A stretch of DNA of 64,000 bases from an uncultured Planctomycetales bacterium (GTDB taxonomy: Bacteria > Omnitrophota > Gorgyraeia > Zapsychrales > Fredricksoniimonadaceae). The notes under the pieces were generated by a model. The model had not been told where the DNA came from. It searched no databases and saw only the letters and a list, made by a program, of their open reading frames with translations. Of the stretch, positions 4,945-62,865 are shown piece by piece. The DNA lies in NCBI GenBank assembly GCA_964438075.1, contig CAYTIW010000007.1, forward strand, positions 10,596 through 74,595, written 5' to 3'. The position numbers and the translations under genes were made by a program. Numbering within the stretch: the stretch's first letter is position 1; the number at the start of each line of letters is the position of its first letter.

Positions 4945-5039
4945 TGCCTTTTTGCCCATTTTTACTTCAGCCCCCTGTCCTGGTGTTTTGCATCGTTGGG
5001 ATCGTTCGATGACTCTAAATAATGAAAGGGGCCGGTCCC

Positions 5040-8553: not shown

Positions 8554-8554
8554 T

Positions 8555-9583: not shown

Positions 9584-9649
9584 ATCAGTTTTGGGTTGAT
9601 TGACGGAAAAAGCTTAGTCTATAATGTAGCCATCAAATGCGGAGAAAAC

Positions 9650-41800: not shown

Positions 41801-41985
41801 ACAACATGTAATTGGTCTAAGTCTTATGCAGTTGGTGATGCGGTAGTATCGTGCCGGAATCGGGATTATCCTTATAAAACTCCGGACATGTTTTTTACTT
41901 GTTCCTATACTTAAAGTTAACATAACATATATTATAGGAAGTTAGTAATCAAAAAAAGATGGCTCCTGCTTTTTTTGAAATGCAT

Positions 41986-43493: not shown

Positions 43494-43530
43494 GGGAAAT
43501 CATTATTCCAGGAGGGCAAATACAACTTTA

Positions 43531-44034: not shown

Positions 44035-44112
44035 TTTAATTCCTTTGATCCAGATATAAGTATAACATAACTTGAAAAAAGTAAAAAATCGCAAATCAAT
44101 AACGGGTGTTTT

Positions 44113-44895: not shown

Positions 44896-44958
44896 TGAAT
44901 AAATTTTAGCCTATTATAGAAAATAAATAAAATATAAACACGGATTTTGTATCTTTGT

Positions 44959-45576: not shown

Positions 45577-45673
45577 ATGACCGATTCCTAGATTTGAGTT
45601 CTAAAACAATGTAAGCGGGGTCCCTTCATTTCAGGCCAATGAAGAAATGATTTGAATCCACAGTATTATCAAT

Positions 45674-45711
45674 AAAAAACCCTGTATCTAGTTGATGATA
45701 CAGGGTTTTTA
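45674..45711. terminator. Bidirectional rho-independent terminator
   Basis: The 9-bp stem is CCCTGTATC (45680-45688) / GATACAGGG (45697-45705). It is flanked by an A-run and a T-run. It lies between queH (+) and a small minus-strand ORF. Confidence 0.6.
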
Positions 45712-45731
45712 TTCTTGAATTGATACGGATA

Positions 45732-45821
45732 TCAGATCAAAATATCAATATTATCCCAACCGAATATTTCACGCTGAGCCTGGTTGACCTTAATTGGCTT
45801 GTCTTCCTTCCATTCTCCCAT
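45732..45821 (-). CDS. Candidate 29-aa small protein (below the ORF-track cutoff)
   Basis: The minus strand reads AGGAGG-TTTAT-ATG, followed by MGEWKEDKPIKVNQAQREIFGWDNIDILI and TGA. The hairpin terminator at 45674-45711 follows. No homology evidence. Confidence 0.35.
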   Translation of the reverse strand: MGEWKEDKPIKVNQAQREIFGWDNIDILI

Positions 45822-46029
45822 ATAAACCTCCTATTTCTTTAATGTAAATAGGTGTTTATCACCCGTTGTTTGTTTAAATATACACTAATTCCTAATATGT
45901 GCCAATCTTTTTTTATCAATGATATTGTTACGCTCTGCTAAAAGAAAATAATATCAACAATTTATTTCTTAAAATTTCATATTATAATTCTACGAAATCA
46001 TTTACATAAAGTTGGAAAGGAAATCGACA

Positions 46030-47397
46030 ATGCCAGCTGCTTTGGAGAAATACGCACATAAGCTTGTAAAAAAGATCCGTTTTCGTATACCAGATATACC
46101 AGGAGCTTTGGGACGTTTGGCATCAACTCTGGGAGCTCAGGGAGCGGTACTGGGAGACATTGTGACGGAGAATGTTACGTCCAATTACATAATCCGTGAC
46201 ATCACGATATATTTTGACACCAAGGAAGAACTTGATGCCGCTCTTTCCGCAGCCCGTAAACTAAAAGGATACAAGATACTGGATGTTAAAGATGAAGTCC
46301 TGAGCATACACCAAGGAGGGAAGATCGCGATCATACCTCGGGTCAAGGTGGAGACCCTAAGCGACCTGCGTATGATATATACTCCTGGGGTGGCTCAGGT
46401 CTGTCATCATATTGCCAAAGTTCCTGGTGATGCCCGAAATTATACTTCCATAGGGAACACTGTTTGTATAGCTACCAATGGATCCGCTGTGCTTGGACTG
46501 GGTGATATAGGTGTACTGGCTGCCATGCCGGTGATGGAAGGAAAATCACTTATACTTGGCCGCTTCTCCGGTGTCAGCTGCGTGCCGCTGTTGCTGGATA
46601 GTGATGATCCTAAAACCATTGTAGATGCTTTGGCAACCTTAGCCAAGACATTCAGCGTTATTATGCTGGAAGACATTAGTGCTCCCCTTTGTTTTGAAGT
46701 AGAAAAGCAACTCCAGCAACGTGTCGATATCCCGGTCTTCCATGACGATCAGCATGGAACGGCCGTTGTGATCCTAGCCGCCCTTATCAAAAGTTTGAAG
46801 ATGGTAAGAAAAAAGAAAGAGACAGTGCGCATCGTGATAAACGGTGCCGGAGCCGCTGGTATGGCTGCTTGCCTGTTGCTTTTGGAATATGGTTTTAAGA
46901 ATATAATCCTCTGCGACCGCAACGGAGCCATTTACCAAGGACGCAAAGAAGGAATGAATCCATATAAGGAAGAGATATCTCTGGTCAGCAATAACAAGAA
47001 GATAGCCGGTCCCTTGCCAGCCGTAATGGCGGGGGCTGACGTTTTCATTGGAGTATCGTCTGCCGGTCTGGTCAAGCCGGCCATGGTAAAGTCTATGGCT
47101 AATAAGGCGATAGTTTTCGGCCTGGCCAATCCTGTACCGGAAATATGGCCTAAAGACGCCCTGGCGGCAGGTGCTGCCCTAGCCATGGACGGCCGGACCA
47201 TAAATAATGCTCTTGCTTTTCCTGGGCTTATCCGGGGTGCCATTGATGCCCAGGCGAAGCGCATTACCTATTCGATGAAGTTCGCCGCTGCCGAGACGCT
47301 GGCTTCCCTGGCCGGCAAGAATGAGCTGGTCCCCAACTTCATGCATATGGCTGTTCATGAGAAAGTAGCCGAAGCGGTCAAGGCAGCCGTAAGCTAA
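46030..47397 (+). CDS. NAD(P)-dependent malic enzyme with N-terminal ACT-like domain
   Basis: The start is the ATG at 46030. The N-terminal roughly 85 aa are ACT-like (IRFRIPDIPGALGRLASTLGAQGAVLGDI). Malic enzyme segments follow: IYTPGVA, TNGSAVLGLGDIG, PVMEGKS, FHDDQHGTA and the NAD-binding INGAGAAG. Confidence 0.85.
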   Translation: MPAALEKYAHKLVKKIRFRIPDIPGALGRLASTLGAQGAVLGDIVTENVTSNYIIRDITIYFDTKEELDAALSAARKLKGYKILDVKDEVLSIHQGGKIAIIPRVKVETLSDLRMIYTPGVAQVCHHIAKVPGDARNYTSIGNTVCIATNGSAVLGLGDIGVLAAMPVMEGKSLILGRFSGVSCVPLLLDSDDPKTIVDALATLAKTFSVIMLEDISAPLCFEVEKQLQQRVDIPVFHDDQHGTAVVILAALIKSLKMVRKKKETVRIVINGAGAAGMAACLLLLEYGFKNIILCDRNGAIYQGRKEGMNPYKEEISLVSNNKKIAGPLPAVMAGADVFIGVSSAGLVKPAMVKSMANKAIVFGLANPVPEIWPKDALAAGAALAMDGRTINNALAFPGLIRGAIDAQAKRITYSMKFAAAETLASLAGKNELVPNFMHMAVHEKVAEAVKAAVS

Positions 47398-47459: not shown

Positions 47460-48875
47460 TCAGGCTCCTAAAAGTGCTGCTGCCTGTTTTAGAAGATCAT
47501 TCAGGAATGGCGGGATATAAAGACCGAGTATCAAGACGATAAGGGCCAGCAGCAAGATCGGCATGACCATGGGCACGGTTTCCTTTCTGGAATGGGCCAT
47601 GGTCTCTGGCGGCAAGCCTTGGATCATTCTCAAAATAATGTCCGCCACACCCAGGAAGATCAGCCCCAGGAAAATAACAAACAACACAGCGACCACATAA
47701 TTCCCTTTGGTGATCGCTGAATATAAAATGATAAGCTCGCTCAAGAAGGTGCCGAACGGAGGCGCACCCGTAACAGCCAGGAAGCCGGCTAAAAGCAGGA
47801 TGCCAGTAACCGGGTATGAACGAAGGGCTCCGCGCACGTCTTTTACCTTTTTGCTGTGATATTGTTTGTAAAGGTTCCCCGTGACGAGGAAGACAAAACC
47901 CTTGGTGAAGGCATTGTTCACCAGATGCAAGAGGCTCCCGTATATCCCTACCCCACCAAGGCCGATACCAATAGCCAGGATCCCCATGTGCTCAACGCTG
48001 GAATAGGCCAGCATCCTTTTATAATCGGTCTGCCCTAGGATAAAAACATACGCGATACCCATGGAAGTGAGCCCTAGCACTATCAGCATGGAAGAAAAGA
48101 ACTGATCCTGCCCCGCTGCGTGACAGATCTGGGCCACTCTCAGGATACTTAGGAATGCGCAGTTCAACAGACAACCTGACAGCAAGGCAGAGATAGGTGA
48201 AGGCGCCTGCGAATGGGCATCCGGCAGCCAGGAATGCATCGGGGCCAACCCCATTTTGGTCCCACAGCCGATCAAAAGAAAAATGGCGCTGATCTTAAGC
48301 CACGGTAAGGAAAGTTCTGAGGCCTGAGTTAGAAGTTTATCCAGAAGAAGTGTTTGCACATTCATGGCTGATACCGCCAGGAAATATGTACCGAGCAGGG
48401 CCAATGCTATCCCAACCAGACAGATCATCAGGAACTTCCAGGAAGCTTCAATGCTTTGCCTCGTCTTTTCAAAATTGATCAAAGGTACGCTGGCCAAGGT
48501 AGTGGCCTCTATTCCGATCAGCAGGATCCCGAAATGCCGGCTGATAACGACCAGGGTGATAAAGGATAGGAACGATAATAAGACGCTGACGAATATCCTG
48601 TGAGGCATATCTTCGACTTCCTCGAAATAATCCAGTAGATAAAAAGCTACCATGAGGAACAGAAAGCTCACTACCGAAAGGACCAGAAGACCCAAAGCAT
48701 CGACCGCCAGGAACCCGTTGAACGCCGCTGCCGGGGTCTTGCTCCAGAAAGTGATCACACTGGTAAAATGTGCCAGAGCGACCAGAAAAAGCACTCGCTG
48801 TCTTGTTGTTTTGCACGGTAGCAGCAACGTGAGTCCGCCGGCAATTAAAGGAAGGAAAAGCACGAATAACAACAT
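47460..48875 (-). CDS. Antiporter-like subunit (NuoN/HyfF-like), second membrane module
   Basis: 471 aa and polytopic. It has the proton-conducting membrane transporter core (KMGLAPMHSWLPDAHSQAPSPISALLSG) and is a paralog of the 54720-56132 product. Confidence 0.85.
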   Translation of the reverse strand: MLLFVLFLPLIAGGLTLLLPCKTTRQRVLFLVALAHFTSVITFWSKTPAAAFNGFLAVDALGLLVLSVVSFLFLMVAFYLLDYFEEVEDMPHRIFVSVLLSFLSFITLVVISRHFGILLIGIEATTLASVPLINFEKTRQSIEASWKFLMICLVGIALALLGTYFLAVSAMNVQTLLLDKLLTQASELSLPWLKISAIFLLIGCGTKMGLAPMHSWLPDAHSQAPSPISALLSGCLLNCAFLSILRVAQICHAAGQDQFFSSMLIVLGLTSMGIAYVFILGQTDYKRMLAYSSVEHMGILAIGIGLGGVGIYGSLLHLVNNAFTKGFVFLVTGNLYKQYHSKKVKDVRGALRSYPVTGILLLAGFLAVTGAPPFGTFLSELIILYSAITKGNYVVAVLFVIFLGLIFLGVADIILRMIQGLPPETMAHSRKETVPMVMPILLLALIVLILGLYIPPFLNDLLKQAAALLGA

Positions 48876-48878
48876 ATA

Positions 48879-49523
48879 TCAATCCTTTAGAGTGGTCAGG
48901 TGGCGAGTGTCCGTGGTCTCGAACTCTTCACTTATGTGATCTACCACTATCCCCATGACCAGAACCGCGATAAAAAGGTCCAGAATGATCCCCATTTCGA
49001 CCAGAAAAGGCATCTTTTTTAAAAGCAAGATGGCAAAGAGAAAGATGCCGTTCTCCAAGACCAGATAACCGACCACCTGGCTGATCGCCTTATTGCGGCC
49101 GACCAGGAGCAAAAAGCCTAAGATCACCAGCAGAAAGGAAGTCGGGATAAGCATGCCGGATATCCCGGCCACAGGAAAGACCAGCCTGGAGGCCAGCAAG
49201 AAGGACCCGATTATAGCCAGGCCGCACAAAAAGAATACCCGGCCAAAACCTATGACCGGATTGATCTCACTGCGAACGGAAACATGCCGGATCGCCCAAA
49301 AAAGGAAATAAGGCATCAGAAAGCCTCTCAAGATAATAGTAGCCGCAGAAACTATAATGATATGGATCTCCAGGTCGTTAAAATACATAAAGAACGGAAC
49401 GGTCCCCAGGACGCACGACTGGAGCCCCAGGATCTGTATCATGGTCCCTAACCGTCGGCTGCCGACTATCAGCAGCCCGAGCATGACGATCAGTATCAAG
49501 ATCGCTTCCAGCCACGCATTCAT
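48879..49523 (-). CDS. HyfE-like small membrane subunit, second module
   Basis: 214 aa with about 7 TM helices. It is the same size as E. coli HyfE and a paralog of the 56132-56785 product (GYLVLENGIFLFAILL vs GYLIMENGIFLFALSL). Confidence 0.75.
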   Translation of the reverse strand: MNAWLEAILILIVMLGLLIVGSRRLGTMIQILGLQSCVLGTVPFFMYFNDLEIHIIIVSAATIILRGFLMPYFLFWAIRHVSVRSEINPVIGFGRVFFLCGLAIIGSFLLASRLVFPVAGISGMLIPTSFLLVILGFLLLVGRNKAISQVVGYLVLENGIFLFAILLLKKMPFLVEMGIILDLFIAVLVMGIVVDHISEEFETTDTRHLTTLKD

Positions 49524-49525
49524 TG

Positions 49526-50443
49526 CTATCTCCTCACCAGCGTAACAATGAGACCGAATATTGACATGATGAACGCCAGCAGCAGTAAATAGACCACCCG
49601 GTTCATGCGCAGGCGCGCCATTGTCGACTCAACGACCCCTATCAAGACCGCAAAGGCGGACATCCCCGCCAGGTACATGGCGGTGTCCTGCCAGATATCC
49701 TTGATCTGGAAAGGAAAGATCATGGAAATGAAAATGCTGCCCAGCAGAAAAAGTTTTATCGCCTTGCCATAAAGGATGTAAGCCAGGTCCACTCCCCCAT
49801 GGTCCAGGACCATGACTTCATGGATCATCGTTAGTTCCAGGTGCGTTTCGGGATCGTCTACCGGTATACGCGAATTCTCCGCCAGCAGGATAAGGAAGAA
49901 GCTACCCAGCACGAGCAAGAGCTCCGGGCCGGCCACTGGCCAGGAAGAGGCCATCTGCCCCACCAGCATATCAGATAGGGAAAGACTTTTTGCCAAGAGG
50001 GCCAGGATCGTGAGATCCAAGAGTAAAGTTATCTCGGATAAACTCGCGAAGGTCGCCTCCCGGCTGGAGCCCATGCCTTCAAAACTGGAGCCGGTATCGA
50101 GGGCGGCTAGTATCGTGACGAAACGCACTACTGCGAAAAGATAGGCGAAGAGCAGCATGTCACCCCAGAATTGAATGGGGGCTTTCAAAGGCCCCAAAGG
50201 GATCACAATAGTGGCAGCCAGCGTAGCGGCCATTGAGATCATGGGTGCCATGCGGAAGATCCAGGTGGTCGTCGAGCTATAGACGCAACCTTTGCGCATT
50301 AATTTAAAAAGATCGAAATAGGGCTGCATCAAAGGCGGTCCCCAGCGGCCGGAAAAAAAGGCCTTGGTCTTGCCAATGATCCCTAAAAGCACTGGTGAAA
50401 GGACCACGACAAATAACATATGTGACAATATATCCACGGTCAT
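49526..50443 (-). CDS. NuoH/HyfC/HycD-like membrane subunit, second module
   Basis: 305 aa. It has QPYFDLFKL, DTGSSFEGMGSSRE and LAENSRIPVDDPETHLELTMIHE, typical of HycD/HyfC. It is a paralog of the 56791-57720 product. Confidence 0.85.
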   Translation of the reverse strand: MTVDILSHMLFVVVLSPVLLGIIGKTKAFFSGRWGPPLMQPYFDLFKLMRKGCVYSSTTTWIFRMAPMISMAATLAATIVIPLGPLKAPIQFWGDMLLFAYLFAVVRFVTILAALDTGSSFEGMGSSREATFASLSEITLLLDLTILALLAKSLSLSDMLVGQMASSWPVAGPELLLVLGSFFLILLAENSRIPVDDPETHLELTMIHEVMVLDHGGVDLAYILYGKAIKLFLLGSIFISMIFPFQIKDIWQDTAMYLAGMSAFAVLIGVVESTMARLRMNRVVYLLLLAFIMSIFGLIVTLVRR

Positions 50444-50444
50444 T

Positions 50445-52427
50445 TTATCCCAATTTCCATATCAACAAGATCAGAAGGAAAGAAAGAACGTACAAAATAT
50501 AACTTTGGGTATGTCCGCTCTGTATCCATTTCAACTTCCAGGAGATCTTTTTGATCCCATAGAACAGCGGCCGGAAGACCAAATATTCCGAAGCATCTTT
50601 CACTGAGGAACTCAAATGGGCCGGGGCCGGGTAATATTTCCGTGTATCGGTGAGCTCGACTTTAAAAAGCAAAATGCTTTTAAAGAAATTTATGATCGAG
50701 GCCGCGAAGGAGGAGGCGGTATATTGCATCCGGGCGGAAGGGTAGGCATAGCCGCAGGTCCACGTCTCCCCCTGTCGAACCGGATAGGCTTGCAGCGCAA
50801 GTTTTCGCAAAAGGGCCAGGATGATGAAAATAAGGGCGCTGATCATTAATATCTTGGTGACCAGAAAAAGCGGAGCAATGACCGTCGCCAGCATGTCATA
50901 AGGGATCACCACGCCAGTGATTGCCTGTGCCGCCTCCAGAGCATAGAAGACCATTACTGCCGGAAAAAGCCCGCCCCAGAAACAAATGGCCGCCAGTGCC
51001 AGCATAGGGCCCCGTAACAGCCAGCCCGGTTCGGCGCAATGATATTCTTTGGCCGCCCGGCTCTTGCCCAGGAAAATGGCGCCGAAAGCCTTGGTAAAGC
51101 AAAGCGCGGCCAGCCCGCCTATCAGCGCCAGGGCGACTATGGCCAGGCTGGAAAAGATCACGCCGTAAATATCCAAACGGAATACGCCTTCCAAAATGGC
51201 CCTGTAGACCAGCCATTCGCTTATAAAACCGTTGAAAAGGGGTAAGCCGCAGATCGAAAATGACCCAATGAGGAAAAGGCCCCCGGTCCAGGGCAGCGCT
51301 TTAATCAATCCCCCCATATCATCCAGAGACCCGGTGTGGGTCGAACGGATAACGGATCCAGCGCTCAGGAACAAAAGCCCCTTGAACAAGGCGTGATTGA
51401 AAGTATGCAACAACGCCCCCGCATAGCCGATGAACGCGACGGATTCTTGTTGGTAGATGTGGCCCGTCAATCCAACCCCGAGCCCGAGTAAAATGATACC
51501 TATATTCTCGATACTGTGGTATGCCAAAAGTTTCTTTACTTCATGCTGTCCCAGGGCGTATAACACCCCCCCTACTCCGGAAATAACAGCCAGGGCCAGC
51601 AGAAATATCCCGCACCACAAGGGGAGATCATGGATGATAGCGATAATACGCATCAGGCCGTAAATACCGATCTTGATCACGACCCCGGACAACAAGGCGG
51701 AAATGTGGGTCGGGGCGGCCGGATGGGCATATGGTAACCAGATATGCAAAGGGATCATGCCGGCCTTGGCGCCAAAACCGACCAGGGCCAGTAAAAAGAT
51801 CAATGCCGCCGAGCCTAAAGGGAATTGCGTGGCCCGCATCACATCGAAATCCAGGGAGCCCGCCTGGGCTCCCATCAGAAGGAACATGCCCAGCAGGCAA
51901 AAAGTCGCGCTATGCGTGGCTATCAGATAAATATATCCTGCCCGCTGGACCGTTTCCTTTTCATTATAAAAAGTGACAAGAAAATAAGAAACGAACGTCA
52001 TCAGTTCCCAGGCCACGAGGAATATAAAAACACCTTTGGCCACCAAAATGAGGGCGATGGCCATGATCAGCAGATGATAGAGCGCGAAATGCACTCCGAT
52101 GTTCCTTTGACCGCCGTACTCCCGTAAATAACCATAGCCATATATTCCGGCAGCCAAGGCAAGGAGGAAAACCAATAAAAGGAAAAAAGCGCTTAAAACG
52201 TCCATCCCGATATGGAAAGTCCCTAAAGGGATCTGCCAATGGGCCCTGAAATCCCACGCCAGTGCCGGTTTACACAATATCTCGAGGGCGGACAGAAGAC
52301 CCAGGCCGCAGCCGATGACCAGAGAGCCCAGAAAGATATGACCTGAAATTATTTTACAGCGCGCAGACAGCAATATCGCGAGTGAGGCGAGCGTTAAAAC
52401 GGCGAGGCTTGATAATAGGAGTACCAT
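50445..52427 (-). CDS. Antiporter-like subunit (NuoL/HyfB/HycC-like), second module
   Basis: 660 aa and polytopic. It has GFGAKAGMIPLHIWLPYAHPAAPTHISALLSGV and is a paralog of the 57726-59558 product. Confidence 0.85.
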   Translation of the reverse strand: MVLLLSSLAVLTLASLAILLSARCKIISGHIFLGSLVIGCGLGLLSALEILCKPALAWDFRAHWQIPLGTFHIGMDVLSAFFLLLVFLLALAAGIYGYGYLREYGGQRNIGVHFALYHLLIMAIALILVAKGVFIFLVAWELMTFVSYFLVTFYNEKETVQRAGYIYLIATHSATFCLLGMFLLMGAQAGSLDFDVMRATQFPLGSAALIFLLALVGFGAKAGMIPLHIWLPYAHPAAPTHISALLSGVVIKIGIYGLMRIIAIIHDLPLWCGIFLLALAVISGVGGVLYALGQHEVKKLLAYHSIENIGIILLGLGVGLTGHIYQQESVAFIGYAGALLHTFNHALFKGLLFLSAGSVIRSTHTGSLDDMGGLIKALPWTGGLFLIGSFSICGLPLFNGFISEWLVYRAILEGVFRLDIYGVIFSSLAIVALALIGGLAALCFTKAFGAIFLGKSRAAKEYHCAEPGWLLRGPMLALAAICFWGGLFPAVMVFYALEAAQAITGVVIPYDMLATVIAPLFLVTKILMISALIFIILALLRKLALQAYPVRQGETWTCGYAYPSARMQYTASSFAASIINFFKSILLFKVELTDTRKYYPAPAHLSSSVKDASEYLVFRPLFYGIKKISWKLKWIQSGHTQSYILYVLSFLLILLIWKLG

Positions 52428-52494
52428 GTTTTTTTATTACCGTCCTGGCCTAGGCAAATCGCGCAAGTTCACGGGAGTTGCCCGGTCTATTCCC

Positions 52495-53169
52495 TTAAGT
52501 CTTTATCCTGGCCAGCAATCGTAAAAACCCGTCCAGGATGGTCAACGGATGCGGCGGGCAGCCAGGGATAAAGAGGTCGACAGGCAGAATGCCGTCCAGC
52601 CCCTTTGATGTTTCCGGGCTGCCGGCAAATATCCCCCCGGAGACCGCGCAGGCCCCGACCGCTACCACGATCTTAGGGTCGGGCGTGGCTTCGTAAGTTT
52701 TAAGAAGCGCTTCTTTCATGTTGCGCGTTATAGGCCCGGTCACCACAATCCCGTCTGCATGTCTGGGTGAGGCCACGAACTGAATGCCGAAACGACTGAG
52801 ATCGAAGACCGGGGTGTTCAGCACGTTTATGTCCGCTTCGCAGGCATTGCATCCGCCTGCTGACACTTGGCGCAGCTTGAGCGATCGGCCGAAAATACGC
52901 AGCATCTCCTGTTTGAGGGACCGCGCTAACGCGAGCTCCTCCCCCCTGAGGACCAGGTCGCTTCGCCGGCCGACGGCCATCCGGTAGTCGTTGGAATAGT
53001 TCACCCCGCCGTCCGGGATGAAGGTCATTGTCCCCAGGTCCAGTCCTTCCGGGTTCCCGGCGATGATAGGCCGCCCGCGGTAGCGTGCGGGCAGGGCCGG
53101 TGGAGGTATTCGAGGGAATTTAAGCGTCCTGCATCCTTGCAAAAACCGCGTCTTGATGATTTTCAACAT
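52495..53169 (-). CDS. NuoB/HycG-like small subunit ([4Fe-4S] carrier)
   Basis: 224 aa. Four cluster Cys are retained: GGCNACEAD, VGACAVSGG and IPGCPPHP. SPRHADGIVVTGP is also present. Confidence 0.88.
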   Translation of the reverse strand: MLKIIKTRFLQGCRTLKFPRIPPPALPARYRGRPIIAGNPEGLDLGTMTFIPDGGVNYSNDYRMAVGRRSDLVLRGEELALARSLKQEMLRIFGRSLKLRQVSAGGCNACEADINVLNTPVFDLSRFGIQFVASPRHADGIVVTGPITRNMKEALLKTYEATPDPKIVVAVGACAVSGGIFAGSPETSKGLDGILPVDLFIPGCPPHPLTILDGFLRLLARIKT

Positions 53170-53177
53170 AATGTCAC

Positions 53178-54689
53178 CTATAGGTCATGCCCACAATATG
53201 AAAGATTGAAACTCTTGTTGCACAGAGGGAAATCCGAGATCTCCTGGTTACGGACCGCCAGGCTGAGACCGAACCAGTTGTGGAAAGAAGGGTCTTTGAT
53301 CTTATAACGTGCAAAACCGCCCTGGGCGTCCGTGATGCCGACATGAGCGATCTCTCCGCGCCATCCCTCCACTAAGGCTAAGGCCAAGGTGTCAGGCCTC
53401 ATCGGCCCCGGCTGGGTGAAAATTTCGCCCTTGGGCAAGGATGGCAGCACCCTTAACAGGAATTCGAAGGAGCGCGAAATCTCTTGCCTTCTTACCAGGG
53501 CCCGCGCATAGACATCACCCGTAGCGGCCAGAGAGATCGGGATGTGGTGGAACTGCCACATACCGGAGGAATAGTTGATCCGAACATCGCGCTCCAGCTG
53601 GCTGGCACGGCCCGCCGGGCCGACCAGTCCGATCTTTTTGGCGTTGCGCGGTGAGACGGTTCCCGCGCCTTCAAAACGCGCCAGGACCGAAGCCCGGGTG
53701 AACAAAAGGTCGCTGGTATAGTCAAATTCTTTACGGTATTGCTCCAGCTTACGGCAAAAGTCTTTAGCCAGGTCTGGGTCAATGTCGAACAGCACCCCGC
53801 CCGGTCGGCACAATCCCTTGCCGAAACGGTTCCCGGTCAGCGCCAGAAGCAGGTTGAGGTAATCCCCGCGCATGCGGCCGAAATAGGCGCTGGTCGGGAG
53901 GAACCCGGTGTCCATCCCCAGCGCGCCAAGGTCACCCATATGATTAGCCAGGCGTTCCAGTTCCAGGGCCACTGCCCGTATAGCCTGCGCCCGGGGCGAT
54001 ATCATGCAACCAGCCAAAGACTCCGCCACTTCACAAAAAGCCGAGGAATGACCGATCGTAGTGTCTCCCGCGATCGATTCGCTCAAAAGGACACTGCGTT
54101 TCAGATCGGCACCCTGCATCAGGGGTTCTATCCCGCGGTGCTGATATCCCAGCTGTATCTCCAGATGGAGGATCTCCTCGCCGTGGCACTGGAAGCGGAA
54201 ATGCCCCGGCTCTATTATTCCGGCATGCACCGGGCCCACGCCCACTTCATGGACCTCCTCTCCTCCCACCGTGTAGAAGGGATAATCGCCGGGGATAGTT
54301 TTCTGGGCGATATTAGGCCAGATGTCCGGTACCCCTCGATAATTCGAATGGTAACGGAGAGGTTTGAGCCAGGGGTGGCCTTCCGGGGTGATGGCCCATT
54401 GCTCCGCTATCTCGCGCTCGAACCAGTGTGCCTGCATAAGGTCTTTGGTCAGGGATTCATAGCGGGGGTACTGGGCCGATATCCTCGTAGACAATATTTT
54501 CAAGATGGATTCTTCGTCTTGTCCCAGGACCGCAAAGAGGCGGACGGATCCGTCGCGGTCCAGCGCCCCGAAAAGGTTGACCAGCCGCACATCGCCCCGG
54601 CAGCGACGGACGACCTCGTGCCGGAATTCATTGGCCGTTAAAAGCGGGATATCCGCCAGCGCAATATTTGCTCCATTGAACAAGTCCAT
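53178..54689 (-). CDS. NuoC-NuoD fused large subunit (HycE/HyfG-like) lacking the NiFe-ligating cysteines
   Basis: 503 aa. The NuoC signature is HWFEREIAEQWAITPEGHPWLKPLR. The NuoD/HycE core is VGPVHAGIIEPGHFRF...LGYQHRGIE. At the L1 position AGDTTIGH (54048-54071) replaces CGICxxxH. At the C-terminus NLSYCGHDL (53181-53207) replaces DPCxxCxDR. Confidence 0.85.
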   Translation of the reverse strand: MDLFNGANIALADIPLLTANEFRHEVVRRCRGDVRLVNLFGALDRDGSVRLFAVLGQDEESILKILSTRISAQYPRYESLTKDLMQAHWFEREIAEQWAITPEGHPWLKPLRYHSNYRGVPDIWPNIAQKTIPGDYPFYTVGGEEVHEVGVGPVHAGIIEPGHFRFQCHGEEILHLEIQLGYQHRGIEPLMQGADLKRSVLLSESIAGDTTIGHSSAFCEVAESLAGCMISPRAQAIRAVALELERLANHMGDLGALGMDTGFLPTSAYFGRMRGDYLNLLLALTGNRFGKGLCRPGGVLFDIDPDLAKDFCRKLEQYRKEFDYTSDLLFTRASVLARFEGAGTVSPRNAKKIGLVGPAGRASQLERDVRINYSSGMWQFHHIPISLAATGDVYARALVRRQEISRSFEFLLRVLPSLPKGEIFTQPGPMRPDTLALALVEGWRGEIAHVGITDAQGGFARYKIKDPSFHNWFGLSLAVRNQEISDFPLCNKSFNLSYCGHDL

Positions 54690-54719
54690 ATCAACCTGCC
54701 TTTTGAAAGCTTGGTAGCT

Positions 54720-56132
54720 TTAAGTCCCTATGATGAACGACACTGCCTCATTCAGTATGTTACCCAAAGCTCGCGGCATCCACAAGCCGATCCCGGCCAG
54801 CACCGCTATCGCCAGGGCTATGGCGGCGTTCATGTAAATATTTTCTTTCTTGGCCAGGACCGGTTCCGTCGGCTGCCCATGCGCGACATCCAGGGCAATG
54901 CGGGCTATACCGATGAACATAAAGGCCAGACAAACGACGCTGATCGCGGCCAGAACATAATGCCCGGATATCACCGAGGCATTGATTATTAATAGTTCGC
55001 TGTGGAAAGTGGCAAAAGGGAATACCCCTGTCCCGGCCAAGAACGATATAAGAAGAAAGATCCCCGTCACTGGGTAGACATGGATCACTCCTCGGACTTC
55101 GTCCACGCGCGAGGAACCGTATTTCTGGGCGATAGATCCGGCGGTCAGGAACATGATCACCTTGGCCAAAGCATTATTGATCATATGGAAAAGAGCGCCC
55201 AGGATCCCTACCCCGCCCAGGCCCAGGCCCAGCGCCAATATCCCCATATGTTCGATCGAGGAATAGGCAAAAGCCCGCTTGAGATTGCGCTCGCTCAGGA
55301 TGAAGACGGCCGGCACCGCCAGGGAGAGGATACCGGTAACGATCAGTATCGAAGAGTAAAATTCGCTCAGGCCGGTACGCGAGCATATCTGGGCCACCCG
55401 CAATAACCCCAGAAAAGCGCATTGTGTGACAGCGCCCGCCATGAGAACGCCCACCATGCCGGTGGCCTGCCCGTAAGCTTCGGGTTTCCAGCTGTGCGTC
55501 GGGGCCAGCCCCATCTTACAGCCATATCCTACCAGCAGGAAAATGACGCTCAATTTAAGCCAGTTCACCGCCAGGTCCGGGGCATTGTGCAGCAAGGAGG
55601 GTAAAAGCAACGTATGGACCTCGTGCGCCGCTATGCCCAGGAAGAACGTCCCCATCAACGCCAGGGCGATGCCGACGGAACAAACGATAAGGTATTTCCA
55701 GGTCGCTTCCAGGGTCTGCCGGTTGCTGTGGAAACTGATCAAGGGCGCGCTGAATAATGTCGTAGTCTCGATCGCCACCCATAAGAGCCCCATGTGATAA
55801 CTGACCGCCACCAAGCTCATGGCGGACAGCAAGAACAATAAACAAGCGACAAAGGTCCGGTTACTCCTTTGTTCATGTTCAAAATAGCCGACCATGAAAA
55901 CGGCCACGCTGACATAAAGGAAACTGCAGATGGAAAGCAGGATCAAGCCCAGCGGGTCCAGTACCAAGAATCCATTCCATTCCGCCGGAGGATGTTTCCA
56001 CCAGAAGGTGGCTACCGCCACAGCATGCGTCAGTGACACGGCACCCAGCAGATACAAACGGTATTGATTCCTTACCGGCAAGAAGGCCAAGATAGCACTC
56101 AGGAATGGGAAGAGTATCAAGCAGGACAGCAT
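54720..56132 (-). CDS. Antiporter-like subunit (NuoN/HyfF-like), first membrane module
   Basis: 470 aa and polytopic, with KMGLAPTHSWKPEAYGQATGMVGVLMAG. The start overlaps the upstream stop (TGATG). Confidence 0.85.
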   Translation of the reverse strand: MLSCLILFPFLSAILAFLPVRNQYRLYLLGAVSLTHAVAVATFWWKHPPAEWNGFLVLDPLGLILLSICSFLYVSVAVFMVGYFEHEQRSNRTFVACLLFLLSAMSLVAVSYHMGLLWVAIETTTLFSAPLISFHSNRQTLEATWKYLIVCSVGIALALMGTFFLGIAAHEVHTLLLPSLLHNAPDLAVNWLKLSVIFLLVGYGCKMGLAPTHSWKPEAYGQATGMVGVLMAGAVTQCAFLGLLRVAQICSRTGLSEFYSSILIVTGILSLAVPAVFILSERNLKRAFAYSSIEHMGILALGLGLGGVGILGALFHMINNALAKVIMFLTAGSIAQKYGSSRVDEVRGVIHVYPVTGIFLLISFLAGTGVFPFATFHSELLIINASVISGHYVLAAISVVCLAFMFIGIARIALDVAHGQPTEPVLAKKENIYMNAAIALAIAVLAGIGLWMPRALGNILNEAVSFIIGT

Positions 56133-56785
56133 CAGAAACTTTCTCCCATCTTGCCTCGGCTCAATGACGCCGGTGAGCTTTCGAACGATTCATTGATGTG
56201 ATTCACCACAATGGCCATGATGAACACGGCCACGAATATATCCAGCAATATGCCCATTTCGATCAAGGCCGGCATGACGTCGAACAAGGACAAGGCAAAA
56301 AGGAAGATCCCGTTCTCCATGATGAGATAACCCAGCACCTGGGTCACCGCCCTGGTCCGTGTCACCATCAGCAAGAACCCCAAAAGCACGGTCGACAAGG
56401 CGCAGGGGAACAACAGGTCAGCCGGCGGCCTGCCCGGGAGCGGCAGCGATAAGGAAAGCCAGAACGCGCCCGCTATCACCAGCGCCCCGCCGATAATGGA
56501 GGCCCCAGGACCGATGACCGGCCTGATCTCGGACCGCATGGACACATGCCGGATAGCCCAGAACAGAATGTAAGGGACCAGGATGCCTTTGAGTACTATC
56601 GTGCCGATAGAGAGCATCAGGTCGCGGCCTTCGATGGCATCGGCATGCAGGAACAACGGCATCATCCCTAGCACGAAAGACTGGGCCGCAAAGATTTTGA
56701 TCATCCCTCCGATCCGGCACGTCGAAAGAACGGCCAGGGCAGAAAATACGATCAAGATAGCGCCAGCGTCGATCCACGTGGTCAT
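56132..56785 (-). CDS. HyfE-like small membrane subunit, first module
   Basis: I prefer the ATG at 56785 (MTTWIDAGAILIVF, which aligns with MNAWLEAILILIVM of the paralog; GGAGGGGGG upstream). The track uses GTG at 56806. Confidence 0.75.
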   Translation of the reverse strand: MTTWIDAGAILIVFSALAVLSTCRIGGMIKIFAAQSFVLGMMPLFLHADAIEGRDLMLSIGTIVLKGILVPYILFWAIRHVSMRSEIRPVIGPGASIIGGALVIAGAFWLSLSLPLPGRPPADLLFPCALSTVLLGFLLMVTRTRAVTQVLGYLIMENGIFLFALSLFDVMPALIEMGILLDIFVAVFIMAIVVNHINESFESSPASLSRGKMGESF

Positions 56786-56790
56786 GTTAT

Positions 56791-57720
56791 TTACGCCCCC
56801 CTCCACATCGTTACGATGAACCCGAAGAAAGCCAGCACGAAGGCGATCAGAAGCAGATTGCGGACACGGTTAAGGCGCAAACGTGCCATGGAGGACTCGA
56901 CCATGCCTACCGCCATCGCGACGACCGTCAGGCCGCAAAAGAAAAGCACGGTATCCGTCCAGAGATGCCCCGTCGGTATTGGAAGTATTATGGACACCAG
57001 GATAGAGCTGAATAACATGAACTTGGCAGCCGAAGCGTAAAGCAGGTAGCCCAGGTCTACCCCGCTATGGTCCAGAATCATGACCTCATGGACCATGGTG
57101 AGCTCAAGATGGGTGTCCGGGTCATCGACCGGGATGCGGCAATTTTCGGCCAGCAGAACGATAAAAATACTTGCCACGACCAATAGAAGTGCCGGGCCGA
57201 GCAATCGCCAGGACACGGGTATGTCCGCGCCTATCATCTGGGACAGGGAGATGTCGTTTGCCAGGAGCGCCAGGGTTATGAAATTCATGAACAGGGCCAG
57301 TTCCGCCAGGCAGGAAAAGAAAGCCTCCCGGCTGGCCCCCATTCCCTCAAAACTGGACCCCGTATCCATTGCCGCCGAGATCTGGAAGAAGCGGGCCAGC
57401 GCCAGTATGTAGGCGGCTAGTATGATATCGCCGGAGAACTGTACCGGAGCCTTGAAGGCTCCCAAGGGGATTAGCAAGGACAGCAGGAGGACCGCCGCCA
57501 GCCCCACTATCGGTGCGCTGCGGAAGACCCATGTGGTGGTACGGCTGTATACCGAAGCCTTCCGGAAAAGCCGGCCGAGGTCGAAATAAGGCTGAAAAAG
57601 CGACGGGCCCTCCTTCCCGGCGAAGAAGGCCTTTACCTTGTTGATCACGCCGATGAAAAAAGGCGCGCACATAAGCACGATCAGCCAGTGCAATAATATT
57701 GAGAAGCAGGTGCTCCACAT
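56791..57720 (-). CDS. NuoH/HyfC/HycD-like membrane subunit, first module
   Basis: 309 aa with QPYFDLGRL, DTGSSFEGMGASRE and LAENCRIPVDDPDTHLELTMVHE. Confidence 0.85.
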   Translation of the reverse strand: MWSTCFSILLHWLIVLMCAPFFIGVINKVKAFFAGKEGPSLFQPYFDLGRLFRKASVYSRTTTWVFRSAPIVGLAAVLLLSLLIPLGAFKAPVQFSGDIILAAYILALARFFQISAAMDTGSSFEGMGASREAFFSCLAELALFMNFITLALLANDISLSQMIGADIPVSWRLLGPALLLVVASIFIVLLAENCRIPVDDPDTHLELTMVHEVMILDHSGVDLGYLLYASAAKFMLFSSILVSIILPIPTGHLWTDTVLFFCGLTVVAMAVGMVESSMARLRLNRVRNLLLIAFVLAFFGFIVTMWRGA

Positions 57721-57725
57721 AGCGG

Positions 57726-59558
57726 TTATCCCAATTTCCAGGCCAATAAAAATATCAGGAACAAAAATATATACATAAGATACATCTGCGTATAACGGAT
57801 ACGGCCGTCATCCAGCTTTTTGGAAAGGCCGGTTAGCAAGACGAAGAAAGGCCTGAAGGCCAGTTCCTCGGAAGCGTCATGCACTGACGAAGTCAGATGC
57901 GACCTGGCCGGAAGATATCCGGTCACTTGCCCGCCGTGCCGGTTGAAAAGCAGGGCTTTCCGCACAAAATCGGTAATGGGCCTGGCAAAAGAAGAGGAAG
58001 TATACTGGCATCTGGCAGAATACTCCGCGTAGCCGCAGCCCCATGTATCCCGCAAGGGCATGGGCTCAGTACCCGATAATCTCCGGCGGAGAATTAAAAG
58101 CGCCACGACCAGCGCCAGGAACAGTAACGAGAGTGCTACGATGACCGATAACGGCATCATGACCTTATCCCAGTCCAGTCCGTTCTTACTGGTGTAGGCC
58201 AGATATGAACCGGCCTGAAAGGCGAATTCAGCGATAGTGTCCGGGGCCAGTCCTATCCAAAGGCATAATCCAGCTAGGATAGACATAGGGACCACCATAA
58301 ATGCTGATGGGTCATGGATCTCGGCTGCCCGGGACGGATCACGAGGTTCTCCCGAAAAGACCGTGCCGTAGACCTTGGCAAAACAGGCCAGGGCCAGAGC
58401 GCCCATCAAGGCCAGCGCCAATATGCCCAGAGCACAAACGACCACTCCGTTCAGCGGTAAGCTCAACAGACCGTGAAAAAGCCCGAAGTAGATCATGAAT
58501 TCACTTATGAACCCGTTGAACAAAGGCAGGCCGCAGATAGACAAGGCACCGATGAGGAAAAGAATGCTGGTCATGGGCATGGACTTGGCGATCCCGCCTA
58601 AATGGTCCATTTCGCCGGTGTTGGTCTTTTGGATCACTGCCCCGGCGTCCAGGAACAGAAGCCCCTTGAAGATCGAATGGTTGAGGACATGCAAGAGCCC
58701 TCCGGCAAACCCGACCGCAGACAGAAAAGGCATCTGGGAGCTGCGGCCGACCAGCCCTAGCCCCAATCCCAAGGCGATTATCCCGATATTCTCAATGCTG
58801 TGATAGGCCAGGAGCTTTTTCAGCTCGTGTTGTCCCAAGGCGTACAACACCCCCATCACTCCCGAGACTACGCCGATAGCAAAAAGCAGGTATCCGCACC
58901 AGTCGGGCAAGCCGCTTATCATCCATATCACCCGGCATATCCCGTAGATGCCGGTCTTGATGCCGACACCTGACAGGAGCGCGGAGACATGCGACGGCGC
59001 GGCCGGATGGGCATGCGGCAACCATATATGCAAAGGCAGGAACCCGGCCTTGACCCCGAAACCAATGATGGCCAAAAGGAAGATCATGCCGGATGTATTT
59101 GACGAAAAGCTTGTCCTGCTGATGACATCAAAATTCATGGAACCGGCGGCGTGGGACATCAAAAAGAACATCAGAAATAGCAGGAATGTCCCGCAATGAG
59201 CTGCGATCAGATAAAGTAGCCCTGCTTTTCGCACCGAAGCCTTTTCATCATGGAACACTATAAGGAAATACGTGGCCATGGACATGGCTTCCCATGCCCC
59301 CAGGAACAGAATAACGTTGTTGGCAGTGACAATGAGTATCAACCCCAGGGTCAGCAGCAGGTAGAAGAATACATGCAGCCAGAGCGGCTTCTTTCCGACG
59401 TAGTGGCGCATATATCCTATGCCGTACACCCCGGCGCAAATTACCAGAATGGCAATAGCCGTGAGGAAGATCAGGCTTAATGGATCCAGCTTGAGGGCCA
59501 ACTCTCCGAAAGGCACCTGCCAGTGTGAATTGAAGGTCTTATATATTCCGTTACTCAT
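57726..59558 (-). CDS. Antiporter-like subunit (NuoL/HyfB/HycC-like), first module
   Basis: 610 aa with GFGVKAGFLPLHIWLPHAHPAAPSHVSALLSGV. The start overlaps the stop of the EIIA-like gene (TGATG). Confidence 0.85.
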   Translation of the reverse strand: MSNGIYKTFNSHWQVPFGELALKLDPLSLIFLTAIAILVICAGVYGIGYMRHYVGKKPLWLHVFFYLLLTLGLILIVTANNVILFLGAWEAMSMATYFLIVFHDEKASVRKAGLLYLIAAHCGTFLLFLMFFLMSHAAGSMNFDVISRTSFSSNTSGMIFLLAIIGFGVKAGFLPLHIWLPHAHPAAPSHVSALLSGVGIKTGIYGICRVIWMISGLPDWCGYLLFAIGVVSGVMGVLYALGQHELKKLLAYHSIENIGIIALGLGLGLVGRSSQMPFLSAVGFAGGLLHVLNHSIFKGLLFLDAGAVIQKTNTGEMDHLGGIAKSMPMTSILFLIGALSICGLPLFNGFISEFMIYFGLFHGLLSLPLNGVVVCALGILALALMGALALACFAKVYGTVFSGEPRDPSRAAEIHDPSAFMVVPMSILAGLCLWIGLAPDTIAEFAFQAGSYLAYTSKNGLDWDKVMMPLSVIVALSLLFLALVVALLILRRRLSGTEPMPLRDTWGCGYAEYSARCQYTSSSFARPITDFVRKALLFNRHGGQVTGYLPARSHLTSSVHDASEELAFRPFFVLLTGLSKKLDDGRIRYTQMYLMYIFLFLIFLLAWKLG

Positions 59559-60241
59559 CAGGATGTCCGTGATGCTTTAGCCTCTGCCACTTGGAATGTG
59601 GCCAGTATATCTTCGCGAGTGGCATGTTCACGCAATACTGTTTTGACCCGTTCGTCCTGCAGGCAAAAGGCCAGCCGCGATAATAACGATAGATGCCCTT
59701 TGAAAGAAGAAGTCAGTATCAGGAACAAAGTATGCACCCCAGCGCCATCCATGGCGGAGAAATCCACCGGCCCCTGAAGGAAGAATAAGCCCACTACCGG
59801 TTCCAAGCCGGCCAGAAGGACGGGGTGTTTAACGTGAGGGATGGCGATACCGTTACCTATGCCTGTGGTCCCCAACTGTTCACGGGAAAGCAGCATATCC
59901 CGTAAAAGCGGTCTTTGGATATTTTCAGGCAGGGGTAATAGATCCAATGCTTTTGCCAGGACCTCTTCCCGTCGCGACTCTGTCAACCCGAAGTAAACCC
60001 CACCCCGTATGAGAGCCGGGGTGATAACGTCCTGGCCAGGGCGGTTCTTTTCGCACAACCTTAAAGCTTCTGGTGTCAGGGGGATACGGTTCTTTAATGC
60101 CCATTCCAGGACTTCGACCGAGTTGAAATAATACTGGTCGTTGGCTTTAACAGCAGGCATGCCCAGATCGTTGAGCCAGTGGTACAATCTTTTTTCCTCG
60201 ATATCAAAGGCTTTCTCAATATCACGAAAAGTCAATTGCAT
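59558..60241 (-). CDS. HTH domain fused to a PTS EIIA(Ntr)/PtsN-like domain
   Basis: 227 aa. The N-terminal roughly 55 aa form an excisionase/MerR-type HTH (LTFRDIEKAFDIEEKRLYHWLNDLGMPAVKANDQYYFN). The C-terminal EIIA type-2 domain has REQLGTTGIGNGIAIPH, where the His lies at the phosphorylation-site position. Confidence 0.75.
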   Translation of the reverse strand: MQLTFRDIEKAFDIEEKRLYHWLNDLGMPAVKANDQYYFNSVEVLEWALKNRIPLTPEALRLCEKNRPGQDVITPALIRGGVYFGLTESRREEVLAKALDLLPLPENIQRPLLRDMLLSREQLGTTGIGNGIAIPHVKHPVLLAGLEPVVGLFFLQGPVDFSAMDGAGVHTLFLILTSSFKGHLSLLSRLAFCLQDERVKTVLREHATREDILATFQVAEAKASRTS

Positions 60242-60338: not shown

Positions 60339-60692
60339 CTATTTAACCTCTAAGACTGCATTGTGCGAACCAAATTCATTCGCAGCGGTAGTTTTCGCAT
60401 TTGGATCATCCACCCATCTTTTATCCATAAAAAAACGGTATTGATAAGTGCCGGGTTTCAATCGCAGAGCACCTCTCCAGGTACCGGTAACGTCTTTCTT
60501 GAGGGGGAAGGCACCGGGAGTCCAGTTGTTGAAAGAACCAGCGACGTTCACACTATAGGCCTGTGGAGCATAAAAACTGAAGTCGACCAGTTTCTCAACT
60601 TGTGGGGTTGGTTGGTCTGAACCGGGACGTATCCCCGGTATTTTTGTTTGAGCGCCTTCTTGCTTCTTCTGTGCCATCTCTTTAGTGAACAT
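60339..60692 (-). CDS. Small CBM48 / AMPK-beta-like glycogen-binding-module protein
   Basis: 117 aa with AGGAGG upstream. The sequence FSFYAPQAYSVNVAGSFNNWTPGAFPLKKDVTGTWRGALRLKPGTYQYRFFMDKRWVDDP matches the E-set/CBM48 pattern. Confidence 0.75.
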   Translation of the reverse strand: MFTKEMAQKKQEGAQTKIPGIRPGSDQPTPQVEKLVDFSFYAPQAYSVNVAGSFNNWTPGAFPLKKDVTGTWRGALRLKPGTYQYRFFMDKRWVDDPNAKTTAANEFGSHNAVLEVK

Positions 60693-61157
60693 TTTTCCCC
60701 TCCTTGTATAAAATCTTCCCCGGCCTGCTTAGCATGATCGTTATTTTTTAGATCATTAATAGCTCTGCCGTTCGGGGTTGATCTTTTATTTTCATGCTGA
60801 CCGTAGGGCTTAACACTTTTAAAATAGCATGTTTATGGGAAATGCAAAAAACATTCTTATTTTACTTAACGGTATTTAGTTTTTCTCTCAGGCCGCATGA
60901 TGATTTTGGCTGACCCCAAAAAGCTGGTTTATCGATGGTACTATCGAGCTCCTATGACCAGCAGAAAAACCTTTGAGGTCTTTCATGCCCGGCCTATTTA
61001 TCAATTCAAAGCCGGGAAAACATTCTCCGCTCCAGTTTATTTCTTATGTCTTGGTAAGGGGGGAGAAATCAATGAGATAGGTTCATTATATGGCAACTTC
61101 GCAATATGTAAATATCTAAGCTGTAAAAAACAAGAAAGATGTCATTCTCCCCCGGCA

Positions 61158-62690: not shown

Positions 62691-62865
62691 ATCTGCCCCC
62701 CATATTAATTTGCGAGCAAGGCCTACAAAGGAACGGTTTGGAAAACGCATGATGTGCTTCAGCACATCTGCTTCAATAATGCCCATCCACAGGCAGCCCT
62801 CTCTCCCACGAGGGATTTTACGCTGCTGCTTTTGGGAACGGGGAGAAAACACTTTGGCCCCCCTT

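Follow-up and report, generated by a model that had tools for sequence, protein, structure and literature searches.

A 64-kb stretch of DNA from an uncultured bacterium of the Omnitrophota (contig CAYTIW010000007.1 of assembly GCA_964438075.1; the whole stretch is hereinafter the window) carries on its minus strand a cluster of eleven genes, which is almost certainly a derived operon of the energy-converting-hydrogenase-related (Ehr) family. The leading gene codes for a helix-turn-helix (HTH) protein with a phosphotransferase system (PTS) EIIA(Ntr)-like domain and is followed by a first membrane arm of four subunits (B1, C1, E1 and F1), a head of one large (L) and one small (S) subunit, and a second complete arm (B2, C2, E2 and F2). 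Arms of the set 1 type and of the set 2 type are termed T1 and T2, respectively. With about even confidence, we favor the reading that the one L–S head is shared by these two arms, which would be co-expressed as alternatives and give rise to two isoforms, L–S–T1 and L–S–T2. The two-arm layout and a cluster-less NuoI stub in S appear to be new, while the Ehr family and its NuoI–NuoB and NuoC–NuoD fusions were known, both fusions being published Ehr features (PMC6349859, Supplementary Note 4).

The original prediction for this DNA, made before any database search, had listed eleven minus-strand genes in the above order, and all of them were recovered at those positions with Pfam and NCBIfam models agreeing on their families. 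It gave the gaps between them as 0–68 nt; the packing is indeed tight, the measured range being −1 to 67 nt, with the largest gap between S and B2 and one-base overlaps between the EIIA stop and the B1 start and between E1 and F1. The similarity of the two sets is far beyond chance in all four subunits (BLASTP: B, 49% identity, E = 0; C, 55%, 1e-115; E, 48.5%, 2e-60; F, 47%, 2e-136). The accompanying claim that every pair aligns along its full length has to be amended for B1, whose N-terminus is ~51 residues shorter than that of B2, a difference of two predicted transmembrane (TM) helices, and whose frame offers no earlier start codon; B1 covers residues 66–665 of the HyfB model.

Two arm types and one head lineage

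Relatives of L were drawn from species-representative genomes and JGI metagenomes (at least about 600 from each), and the best 80 loci of each were examined. The closest homologs of L (59–83% identical) all come from metagenome-assembled genomes (MAGs) of Candidatus Omnitrophota; we refer as clade A to the Omnitrophota clade with L proteins that are 67–100% identical. Gene contexts, along with open reading frame (ORF) and phmmer annotation, yielded 14 distinct fully resolved clade A loci with four layouts, namely (a) EIIA–T1–L–S in five loci, (b) EIIA–T2–L–S in four, (c) T1–L–S–T2 in two (the window and L088), and (d) EIIA–T1–T2–L–S in three (L092, L100 and L175). Thus, two arms accompany a single L–S pair in five of the 14 loci, in two gene orders and in both subclades of L, and among the ~150 best loci examined this combination was not seen outside clade A. 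A comparison of homolog lists roughly indicates T1-only as the commonest layout. The clade A heads form a single lineage (median identity of 77% for L and 75% for S), and because the T1-only and T2-only loci use this same lineage, each of the arms presumably works with it. The original prediction had called for a survey of related genomes for the ten-gene layout, of which it knew no described example. That survey recovered the same order in L088 and the second two-arm order in the three layout d loci; hence the layout is not a one-off but recurs in an Omnitrophota clade, and the bibliographic part of the claim stands, as no description of a two-arm Ehr was found in searches spanning 8 million papers and preprints. 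In L175, a 512-nt gap separates B2 from C2 (11998–12511) and a 221-nt gap separates F1 from B2 (9779–10001), which depart from the tight junctions of the other loci and may be insertions or mis-called starts.

The window comes from an assembly of an uncultured organism, and set 2 has a GC content at third codon positions (GC3) slightly below that of set 1 (0.60–0.67 versus 0.66–0.76), as might be seen if the ten-gene order were a chimera of two Ehr loci joined during metagenome assembly. The probability of such a chimera is negligible: the ten structural genes are found in identical order on two independent Logan assemblies of different runs (L001 and L002), the same order is present in a different species (L088/L089, two assemblies), the second two-arm order lies on contigs of 130–216 kb, and the GC3 of set 2 is inside the range of the other window genes.

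In neighbor-joining (NJ) trees of the concatenated B, C, E and F subunits, T1 and T2 are each monophyletic with bootstraps of 100/100, and the single-subunit NJ trees give the same picture. A second Omnitrophota clade has a single arm, which is joined with T2 at 100/100, and all Omnitrophota arms come together (100/100). These positions point to an arm duplication that is old and internal to the Omnitrophota, unless the long T1 branch is misplaced. The phylogenies of both B/C/E/F sets that had been suggested for dating the duplication thus place the T1/T2 split before the divergence of the two Omnitrophota clades. The trees of T1, T2, L and S do not conflict and fit a single species tree. Two other histories were considered and set aside. 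A tandem duplication of entire units, giving two paralogous L–S heads that were then reciprocally lost, is disfavored by L088, which has the order T1–L–S–T2 but a head that groups with the T2-adjacent heads. A recent horizontal gain of set 2 was likewise rejected, as its slight GC3 difference is within the genome range and the position of T2 in the tree fits vertical descent.

The charged and conserved residues of the two arms suggest that neither is decaying. C1 and C2 each keep 25 of the 26 charged residues conserved in other phyla and retain 60 and 59, respectively, of the 62 family-conserved positions, and the changes in B, E and F are mostly conservative. All four antiporter-like proteins possess the hallmark TM7 lysine along with the WLPDAH/WKPEAY motifs; F2 (3e-33 to MbhH, 6cfw_H) displays an intact TM7 K...WLPDAH...SALLSG motif. 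When retention was scored over positions at least 90% conserved outside clade A, two-arm and one-arm genomes came out equal (C, 0.95–0.98; B, 0.93–0.97; E, 0.83–1.00; F, 0.84–0.95). We read both arms as intact on these sequence features, and the extra B–C–E–F set noticed in the original prediction as real. It is accordingly a very unlikely explanation that one arm is a superfluous copy in the course of being lost and the layout a transient devoid of functional meaning. The relatives have repeatedly been reduced to a single arm of either type, so loss is evidently tolerated; yet the T1/T2 split is older than the divergence of the two Omnitrophota clades (100/100), the two types are 43–53% identical to each other as against 66–82% conservation within each, frameshifts and stops are absent, the conserved charged residues are kept, and two-arm loci occur in each of the two L subclades and with two different gene orders.

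The occurrence of the head with T1, T2 or both, taken with the canonical constraint on both NuoH-like subunits (C1 and C2), suggests that L–S could dock on either arm, i.e., that both arms would bind the same head. The original prediction had offered, as its third option, a stand-alone Mrp-like transporter for set 2; the first six structural genes would then be the whole Ehr, and set 2 would act as a headless secondary cation/proton transporter. Of its options this one fits least, and we regard it as quite unlikely. It could appeal to the gap ahead of set 2, which is the widest in the operon and is preceded by a weak promoter-like match (9/12, at 52545–52518, inside the S gene), to the homology of the antiporter-like subunits with MrpA/D, and to the loss of relay clusters in the clade (see below), which suggests that redox input matters less there. 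However, T2-type genes were never found without an adjoining L–S in the loci examined; the closest relatives of B2 (Omnitrophota proteins of 60–69% identity) are always beside an L–S pair; and T2 is the sole arm at L–S in four loci and lies between T1 and L–S in three. Further, the affinity of T2 to the single arm of the second clade makes it look like the ancestral type and not an add-on, C2 shows no relaxation in two-arm genomes, and the small MrpB/E/F/G subunits were not detected in the cluster with Pfam.

Alternatively, all ten structural proteins might form one supercomplex, with a single head seated on one of the NuoH-like subunits and the second arm extending or flanking the first. We consider this unlikely, as we do the resulting assembly of four antiporter-like and two NuoH-like subunits. 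In both gene orders the genes form a single, closely packed operon with their products made together at ~1:1, as would suit such a machine, and Ehr complexes tolerate extra membrane subunits, e.g., in the B–B–C–E–F–L–S loci of the Geobacter type. Moreover, the T1-type B always lacks the first two TM helices (604–628 aa in all of ~75 homolog clusters) and could form a new lateral interface. But the truncated B1 occurs in T1-only loci as well, and nine of the 14 resolved relatives combine the same head lineage with a single arm, so either arm can do without the other. A headless NuoH-like subunit would also expose its docking surface, yet the conservation of C1 and C2 matches that in one-arm genomes, with which they are intermixed in the trees.

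Head subunits and relay clusters

The L subunit is a 503-aa ORF with PF00329 at residues 49–121 and PF00346 at residues 260–426 (E = 8e-32). It aligns with E. coli HycE (7z0s_E, E = 1e-44) and also with P. furiosus MbhL, while its match to Pyrococcus Mbx/MBS (6u8y, E = 1e-16) is far weaker than that to HycE. An AlphaFold2 model of L (predicted template-modeling score, pTM, 0.84) likewise retrieves 7z0s_E as the top Foldseek match (TM-score 0.79), with NuoCD also among the best folds. Against the NuoD model L scores 168 bits, with the cut-off at 360, and the structural model is unreliable around the quinone site. In the HycE alignment, the four NiFe-ligand cysteines are replaced by A/T at the L1 motif (RVCGICGFAHS in HycE versus ESIAGDTTIGHS in L) and by S/G at L2 (DPCYSC versus NLSYCG). 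These cysteines are missing from all 165 EhrL homologs compared, and no long ORF of the 64-kb window has an L1 (RxCGxCxxxH) or L2 (DPCxxCxxH/R) motif. The substitution of all four bears out the earlier description of the cluster as Ehr-like and not a hydrogenase. L and the 165 EhrL proteins, including those of the Geobacter/Geomonas loci, have in common the near-invariant E-x-x-AGDT-x-x-GH and ISDFPLCNKSFNLSYCGHDL motifs.

In S, the C-terminal 130 residues align with MbhJ (6cfw_J, 6e-40) and HycG (8e-36) and keep C107, C110, C174 and C204, the ligands of the proximal [4Fe-4S] cluster, which are invariant in 30 of the 30 S proteins compared. The generic NuoB subfamily model is passed at 124 bits against a cut-off of 116, and no other NuoB model was passed. 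The N-terminal ~95 residues, when compared on their own with the PDB, matched only NuoI (E. coli, E = 0.034), in two collinear pieces on either side of both ferredoxin motifs. S homologs from Verrucomicrobiota, Planctomycetota, Geobacter relatives, Acidobacteriota and others are 247–265 aa long with two complete four-cysteine motifs; relative to such intact NuoI–NuoB fusions, deletions of 27 aa and 7 aa remove both [4Fe-4S] motifs from the window S (0/8 ligands), and in the alignment with a Limisphaerales S (54% identity over the full length, E = 3e-87) the gaps fall exactly at the Cys motifs. Hence, the two relay [4Fe-4S] clusters have been lost in the window S, with only the ligands of the proximal cluster left. 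Neither a separate NuoI/HycF ORF nor a CxxCxxCxxxCP motif was found anywhere in the 64-kb window. The original prediction that the operon has no ferredoxin subunit is therefore right as regards a separate NuoI ORF and in that the fused ferredoxin of this lineage has lost both clusters; however, it is wrong for the family, in which the canonical Ehr fuses NuoI to NuoB with eight cysteines, and it missed the fused NuoI remnant in S. No account of a NuoI stub without clusters turned up in the same searches of papers and preprints.

Relay loss is seen in both Omnitrophota clades and, in partial form, in Gemmatimonadota and a Desulfobacterota group, with the membrane-proximal cluster being kept throughout. 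Intermediate stages of ferredoxin decay are visible in the S proteins of L029, L031, L035, L036, L038 (Gemmatimonadota), L080, L073 and other 247-aa forms, and also in those of L109, L111 and L122 from Omnitrophota clade B. These forms have a full-length NuoI part with only 0–6 of the eight cysteines left, implying that the relay was lost independently several times in the Ehr family. On the side of L, Cys499 (window ~53190–53192) belongs to the invariant C-terminal SYCGHDL motif and is present in 33 of 36 L proteins with intact S relay motifs versus 10 of 27 with the relay lost, and Cys294 occurs in 24 of 27 relay-lost sequences (mostly Omnitrophota) versus none of the other 68, both contrasts being confounded by phylogeny. 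The loss of the relay suggests that either a donor reduces the proximal cluster directly, or the redox input was dropped and the cluster is structural or regulatory. That redox input was possibly abandoned is hinted at by the dispensability of Cys499 where the relay is lost.

In the shared-head model that we favor, the NuoB core of S would bind one [4Fe-4S] cluster and carry the fused cluster-free NuoI remnant, and the L–S head would dock on the NuoH-like subunit of either arm. One transcript would thereby yield L–S–T1 and L–S–T2 as two isoforms of one ion-translocating machine, which, by homology of its antiporter-like and NuoH-like subunits, is expected to move ions through them. The HTH–EIIA(Ntr)-like product might tie operon expression or the activity of the complex to the PTS phosphorylation state. 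Co-transcription of the operon genes is plausible from the short junctions (the arm junctions measure 2 nt in L092, 28 nt in L088 and 67 nt in the window), from the S–B2 spacer, in which a promoter/terminator scan found no terminator-like site, and from the order repeated in independent assemblies. Rfam and promoter/terminator scans returned nothing informative within the operon.

Several points weigh against this model. Every protein contact in it is inferred from MAG sequence; T1-only and T2-only status was judged on 21-kb loci, so the other arm may lie elsewhere in those genomes; and in the single-chain model of L the predicted local distance difference test (pLDDT) score falls below 50 precisely at the conserved β1–β2 loop and the C-terminus. 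One operon provides one L–S per two NuoH-like subunits, a ratio that is awkward for sharing unless translation rates differ, and co-transcription argues against a condition-specific switching of arms. There is also no obvious electron route to the remaining cluster without the relay clusters, and the papers mentioning Ehr agree that its function is unknown.

More tentatively, and with considerable doubt, we posit that the clade A head may act as a cap that couples or gates without redox chemistry, serves two co-expressed ion-translocating arms, and possibly senses the redox or PTS state via its last cluster and EIIA. This proposal stems from the lack of a NiFe site and of relay clusters and from the dispensability of Cys499 where the relay is lost. 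If true, the complex would be a natural redox-uncoupled complex-I-like transporter with interchangeable membrane arms. It has long been asked how, in machines of the complex I family, the hydrophilic head brings about ion movement in the membrane arm, and clade A offers a natural dissection of this problem: one head lineage occurs with T1, T2 or both, these arms being 50% diverged, and the Fe-S relay is gone whereas the cluster adjoining the membrane interface has been retained. This bears on the need for electron input, on the docking residues required and on the role of an extra NuoH-containing arm. The system, known here from MAG sequence alone, should interest specialists in complex I and hydrogenases.

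Ehr membership and comparison with known machines

The canonical Ehr layout, [HTH–EIIA]–B–C–E–F–L–S, is found in the same order in ~150 loci of many phyla among the best loci examined. The six structural genes seen across these loci agree with the published Ehr composition (PMC6349859, Supplementary Note 4) and with the statement in the original prediction that Ehr complexes are six-subunit. A same-strand HTH–EIIA homolog leads 53 of the 87 Ehr loci with sufficient upstream DNA, and the histidine of the GIAIPH motif is at least 90% conserved in the EIIA homologs. PtsN models match the window gene below their cut-off, and relatives of its EIIA are also matched by HTH_17. The window cluster has the NuoC–NuoD fusion, the NiFe-free L, the membrane genes ahead of L–S and the EhrL orthology of the family. 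The 2x[4Fe-4S] feature of the NuoI part is absent, the fusion being present with its motifs deleted, which makes the window a derived and not a typical member. Assignment to the group 4 [NiFe] hydrogenases is contradicted by the missing NiFe motifs and three-cluster chain. With respect to complex I, NuoA and NuoJ have no match, each arm has two antiporter-like subunits and there are two NuoH-like genes; with respect to Mrp, each set includes a NuoH-like gene and the MrpB/E/F/G families were undetected with Pfam/NCBIfam.

L retrieves loci of Geobacter, Geomonas and Pelobacter at 47–52% identity over the full length in a B–B–C–E–F–L–S context. The Ehr of Geobacter sulfurreducens (EhrA-1/A-2, B, C, D, L, S; GSU0739–0745; the group of Marreiros et al. 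2013), subunits of which have been detected in proteomes, consists of the same families in the same order. However, the Geobacter-type S keeps all eight ferredoxin cysteines whereas both motifs are deleted in the window S, and Geobacter duplicates only the HyfB-like gene while the window has the whole four-gene arm twice, NuoH-like subunit included. The N-terminally shortened B of the window T1 arm is a further departure from the Geobacter Ehr. In the Geobacteraceae locus L056 (12.5–20.6 kb), a second, different complex-I-like unit (B–C–F–L–S), the S of which is without a NuoI part, follows the canonical Ehr in tandem; L082 has the same tandem unit plus two L–S pairs.

Among the better-characterized systems, E. 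coli Hyf/Hyc (7z0s) provides the top match to L (HycE), S matches HycG as well as MbhJ, and the membrane subunits take their names from HyfB/C/E/F. In contrast to the window cluster, Hyf/Hyc have an intact NiFe site, a separate HyfH/HycF ferredoxin and one NuoH-like subunit, and Hyf also has a HyfA-type protein. They further have a formate dehydrogenase partner, none of which adjoins the window cluster. Pyrococcus Mbx/MBS (6u8y) resembles the window cluster in having lost hydrogenase chemistry while keeping a complex-I-like architecture with Mrp-type modules. MBS, nevertheless, keeps all three [4Fe-4S] clusters, a defined redox reaction and one NuoH-like subunit. The cyanobacterial NDH-1 variants (e.g., NDH-1L and NDH-1MS) combine one core with alternative paralogous antiporter-like modules and offer a functional analogy only: in these, only the distal NdhD/NdhF pair is swapped, there is just one NuoH homolog (NdhA), each paralog has its own regulation instead of sharing an operon, and the NdhI Fe-S relay is intact. 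The Mrp Na+/H+ antiporter (6z16, 7qru) has homologs of B and F in MrpA/MrpD; it has no NuoH-, NuoB- or NuoD-like subunits and needs MrpB/C/E/F/G, of which only the NuoK-like part of E is recognizable in the window cluster. By analogy, a redox-independent, Mrp-like mode is conceivable for the relay-less head.

Gene inventory and genomic neighborhood

The features of the operon are collected in Table 1. E1 is 217 aa long from its ATG, as also in the gene calls of L001, and 224 aa from an upstream GTG.

Table 1. Features of the window operon, in order of transcription (positions in the window)
Feature	Position	Strand	Supporting match
HTH-EIIA, PTS EIIA(Ntr)-like; operon gene 1	59558..60241	-	PF00359 5e-19
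B1, HyfB/NuoL-like antiporter-type, arm T1, 610 aa	57726..59558	-	PF00361 1e-53
C1, NuoH/HyfC-like, arm T1	56791..57720	-	PF00146 2e-32
E1, HyfE-like, arm T1	56132..56785	-	NF008556 HyfE 1e-26
F1, HyfF/NuoN-like antiporter-type, arm T1	54720..56132	-	PF00361 4e-37; HyfF models ~1e-82
L (EhrL), NuoC-NuoD fusion, group-4 hydrogenase large-subunit homolog	53178..54689	-	PF00329 + PF00346
S, whole ORF, NuoB-like	52495..53169	-	
S N-terminal ~95 residues, NuoI/HycF-derived stub	52885..53169	-	PDB NuoI matches; alignment to intact fusions
S C-terminal NuoB/HycG-like core	52495..52884	-	PF01058 5e-32
S-B2 spacer, 67 nt, junction of six-gene unit and second arm	52428..52494	-	
B2, HyfB-like, arm T2, 660 aa, full N-terminus	50445..52427	-	HyfB model 8-665, 1.5e-172
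C2, NuoH/HyfC-like, arm T2	49526..50443	-	PF00146 2e-35
E2, HyfE-like, arm T2	48879..49523	-	NF008556 9e-26; weak PF00420 match
F2, HyfF-like antiporter-type, arm T2; last operon gene	47460..48875	-	47% identity to F1

No formate dehydrogenase, NuoEF or carbon monoxide dehydrogenase (CODH) was found near the window cluster. Among the 141 ORFs counted as neighbors in other phyla, the Hexapep family ranked first as a candidate partner oxidoreductase and was rejected as lineage synteny: the neighbor in question is a 472-aa protein of one Desulfobacterota-like subclade only, usually on the opposite strand, and is not a gamma-carbonic anhydrase. A SulP/STAS anion transporter adjoins Ehr clusters in the Omnitrophota and at least four other phyla (L083, L085, L092, L175, L003, L096, L109, L111, L122, L011, L029, L036, L077, L151, L155 and L162), a beta-carbonic anhydrase is adjacent to Ehr in L023 and L073, and a malic enzyme adjoins it in the window (46012–47397) and in six Omnitrophota loci (L092, L175, L101, L176, L111 and L115). 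Ehr may have a link to bicarbonate/CO2 or anion handling, with these neighbors being too sparse for a call.

Just upstream of HTH–EIIA, the window codes for a 117-aa protein made up of an AMPK-beta/CBM48 glycogen-binding domain (60339–60692, minus strand), which is also present in L083 (3793–4143). Relatives have GH57 and CBM48 amylases (glycogen enzymes), PPX–PPK and a ROK kinase on the flanks of the operon. A non-coding stretch of 466 nt (60693–61157) upstream of the CBM48-domain gene holds the best promoter-like match and has no match in Rfam. Further along, a reverse-transcriptase ORF (RVT_1; 62866–63948, minus strand) has the defense-associated RT_UG26 as its best PADLOC model (E = 8e-36); the match begins at model position 88, and the N-terminus looks missing. 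The 265-aa ORF beside it (62091–62888, minus strand) has no family match.

At the other end of the window, 136–11149 (plus strand) codes for F-type ATPase-like delta, gamma and alpha/beta subunits (136–3196) followed directly by the type II secretion system (T2SS) components T2SS-E/F and T2SSK and by PilM/PilN. A cluster of this kind, with a non-respiratory F-ATPase beside type-4a pilus genes, has been reported from Omnitrophota of the Velamenicoccia (PMC10066038), and the match hints at the class to which the bacterium belongs. The same survey of Omnitrophota genomes scored respiratory complex I by PF00346; as EhrL matches this family, complex I and respiration may have been over-called in the phylum. 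Finally, at ~40000–46000 of the window the GC content falls from ~0.53 to 0.38–0.44, with a GC3 of 0.38–0.51. This stretch beside the operon, which codes for a patatin phospholipase with a cyclic-nucleotide (cNMP)-binding domain, a HAD hydrolase, QueH and two family-less ORFs (43531–44895), may be a foreign or fast-evolving island.

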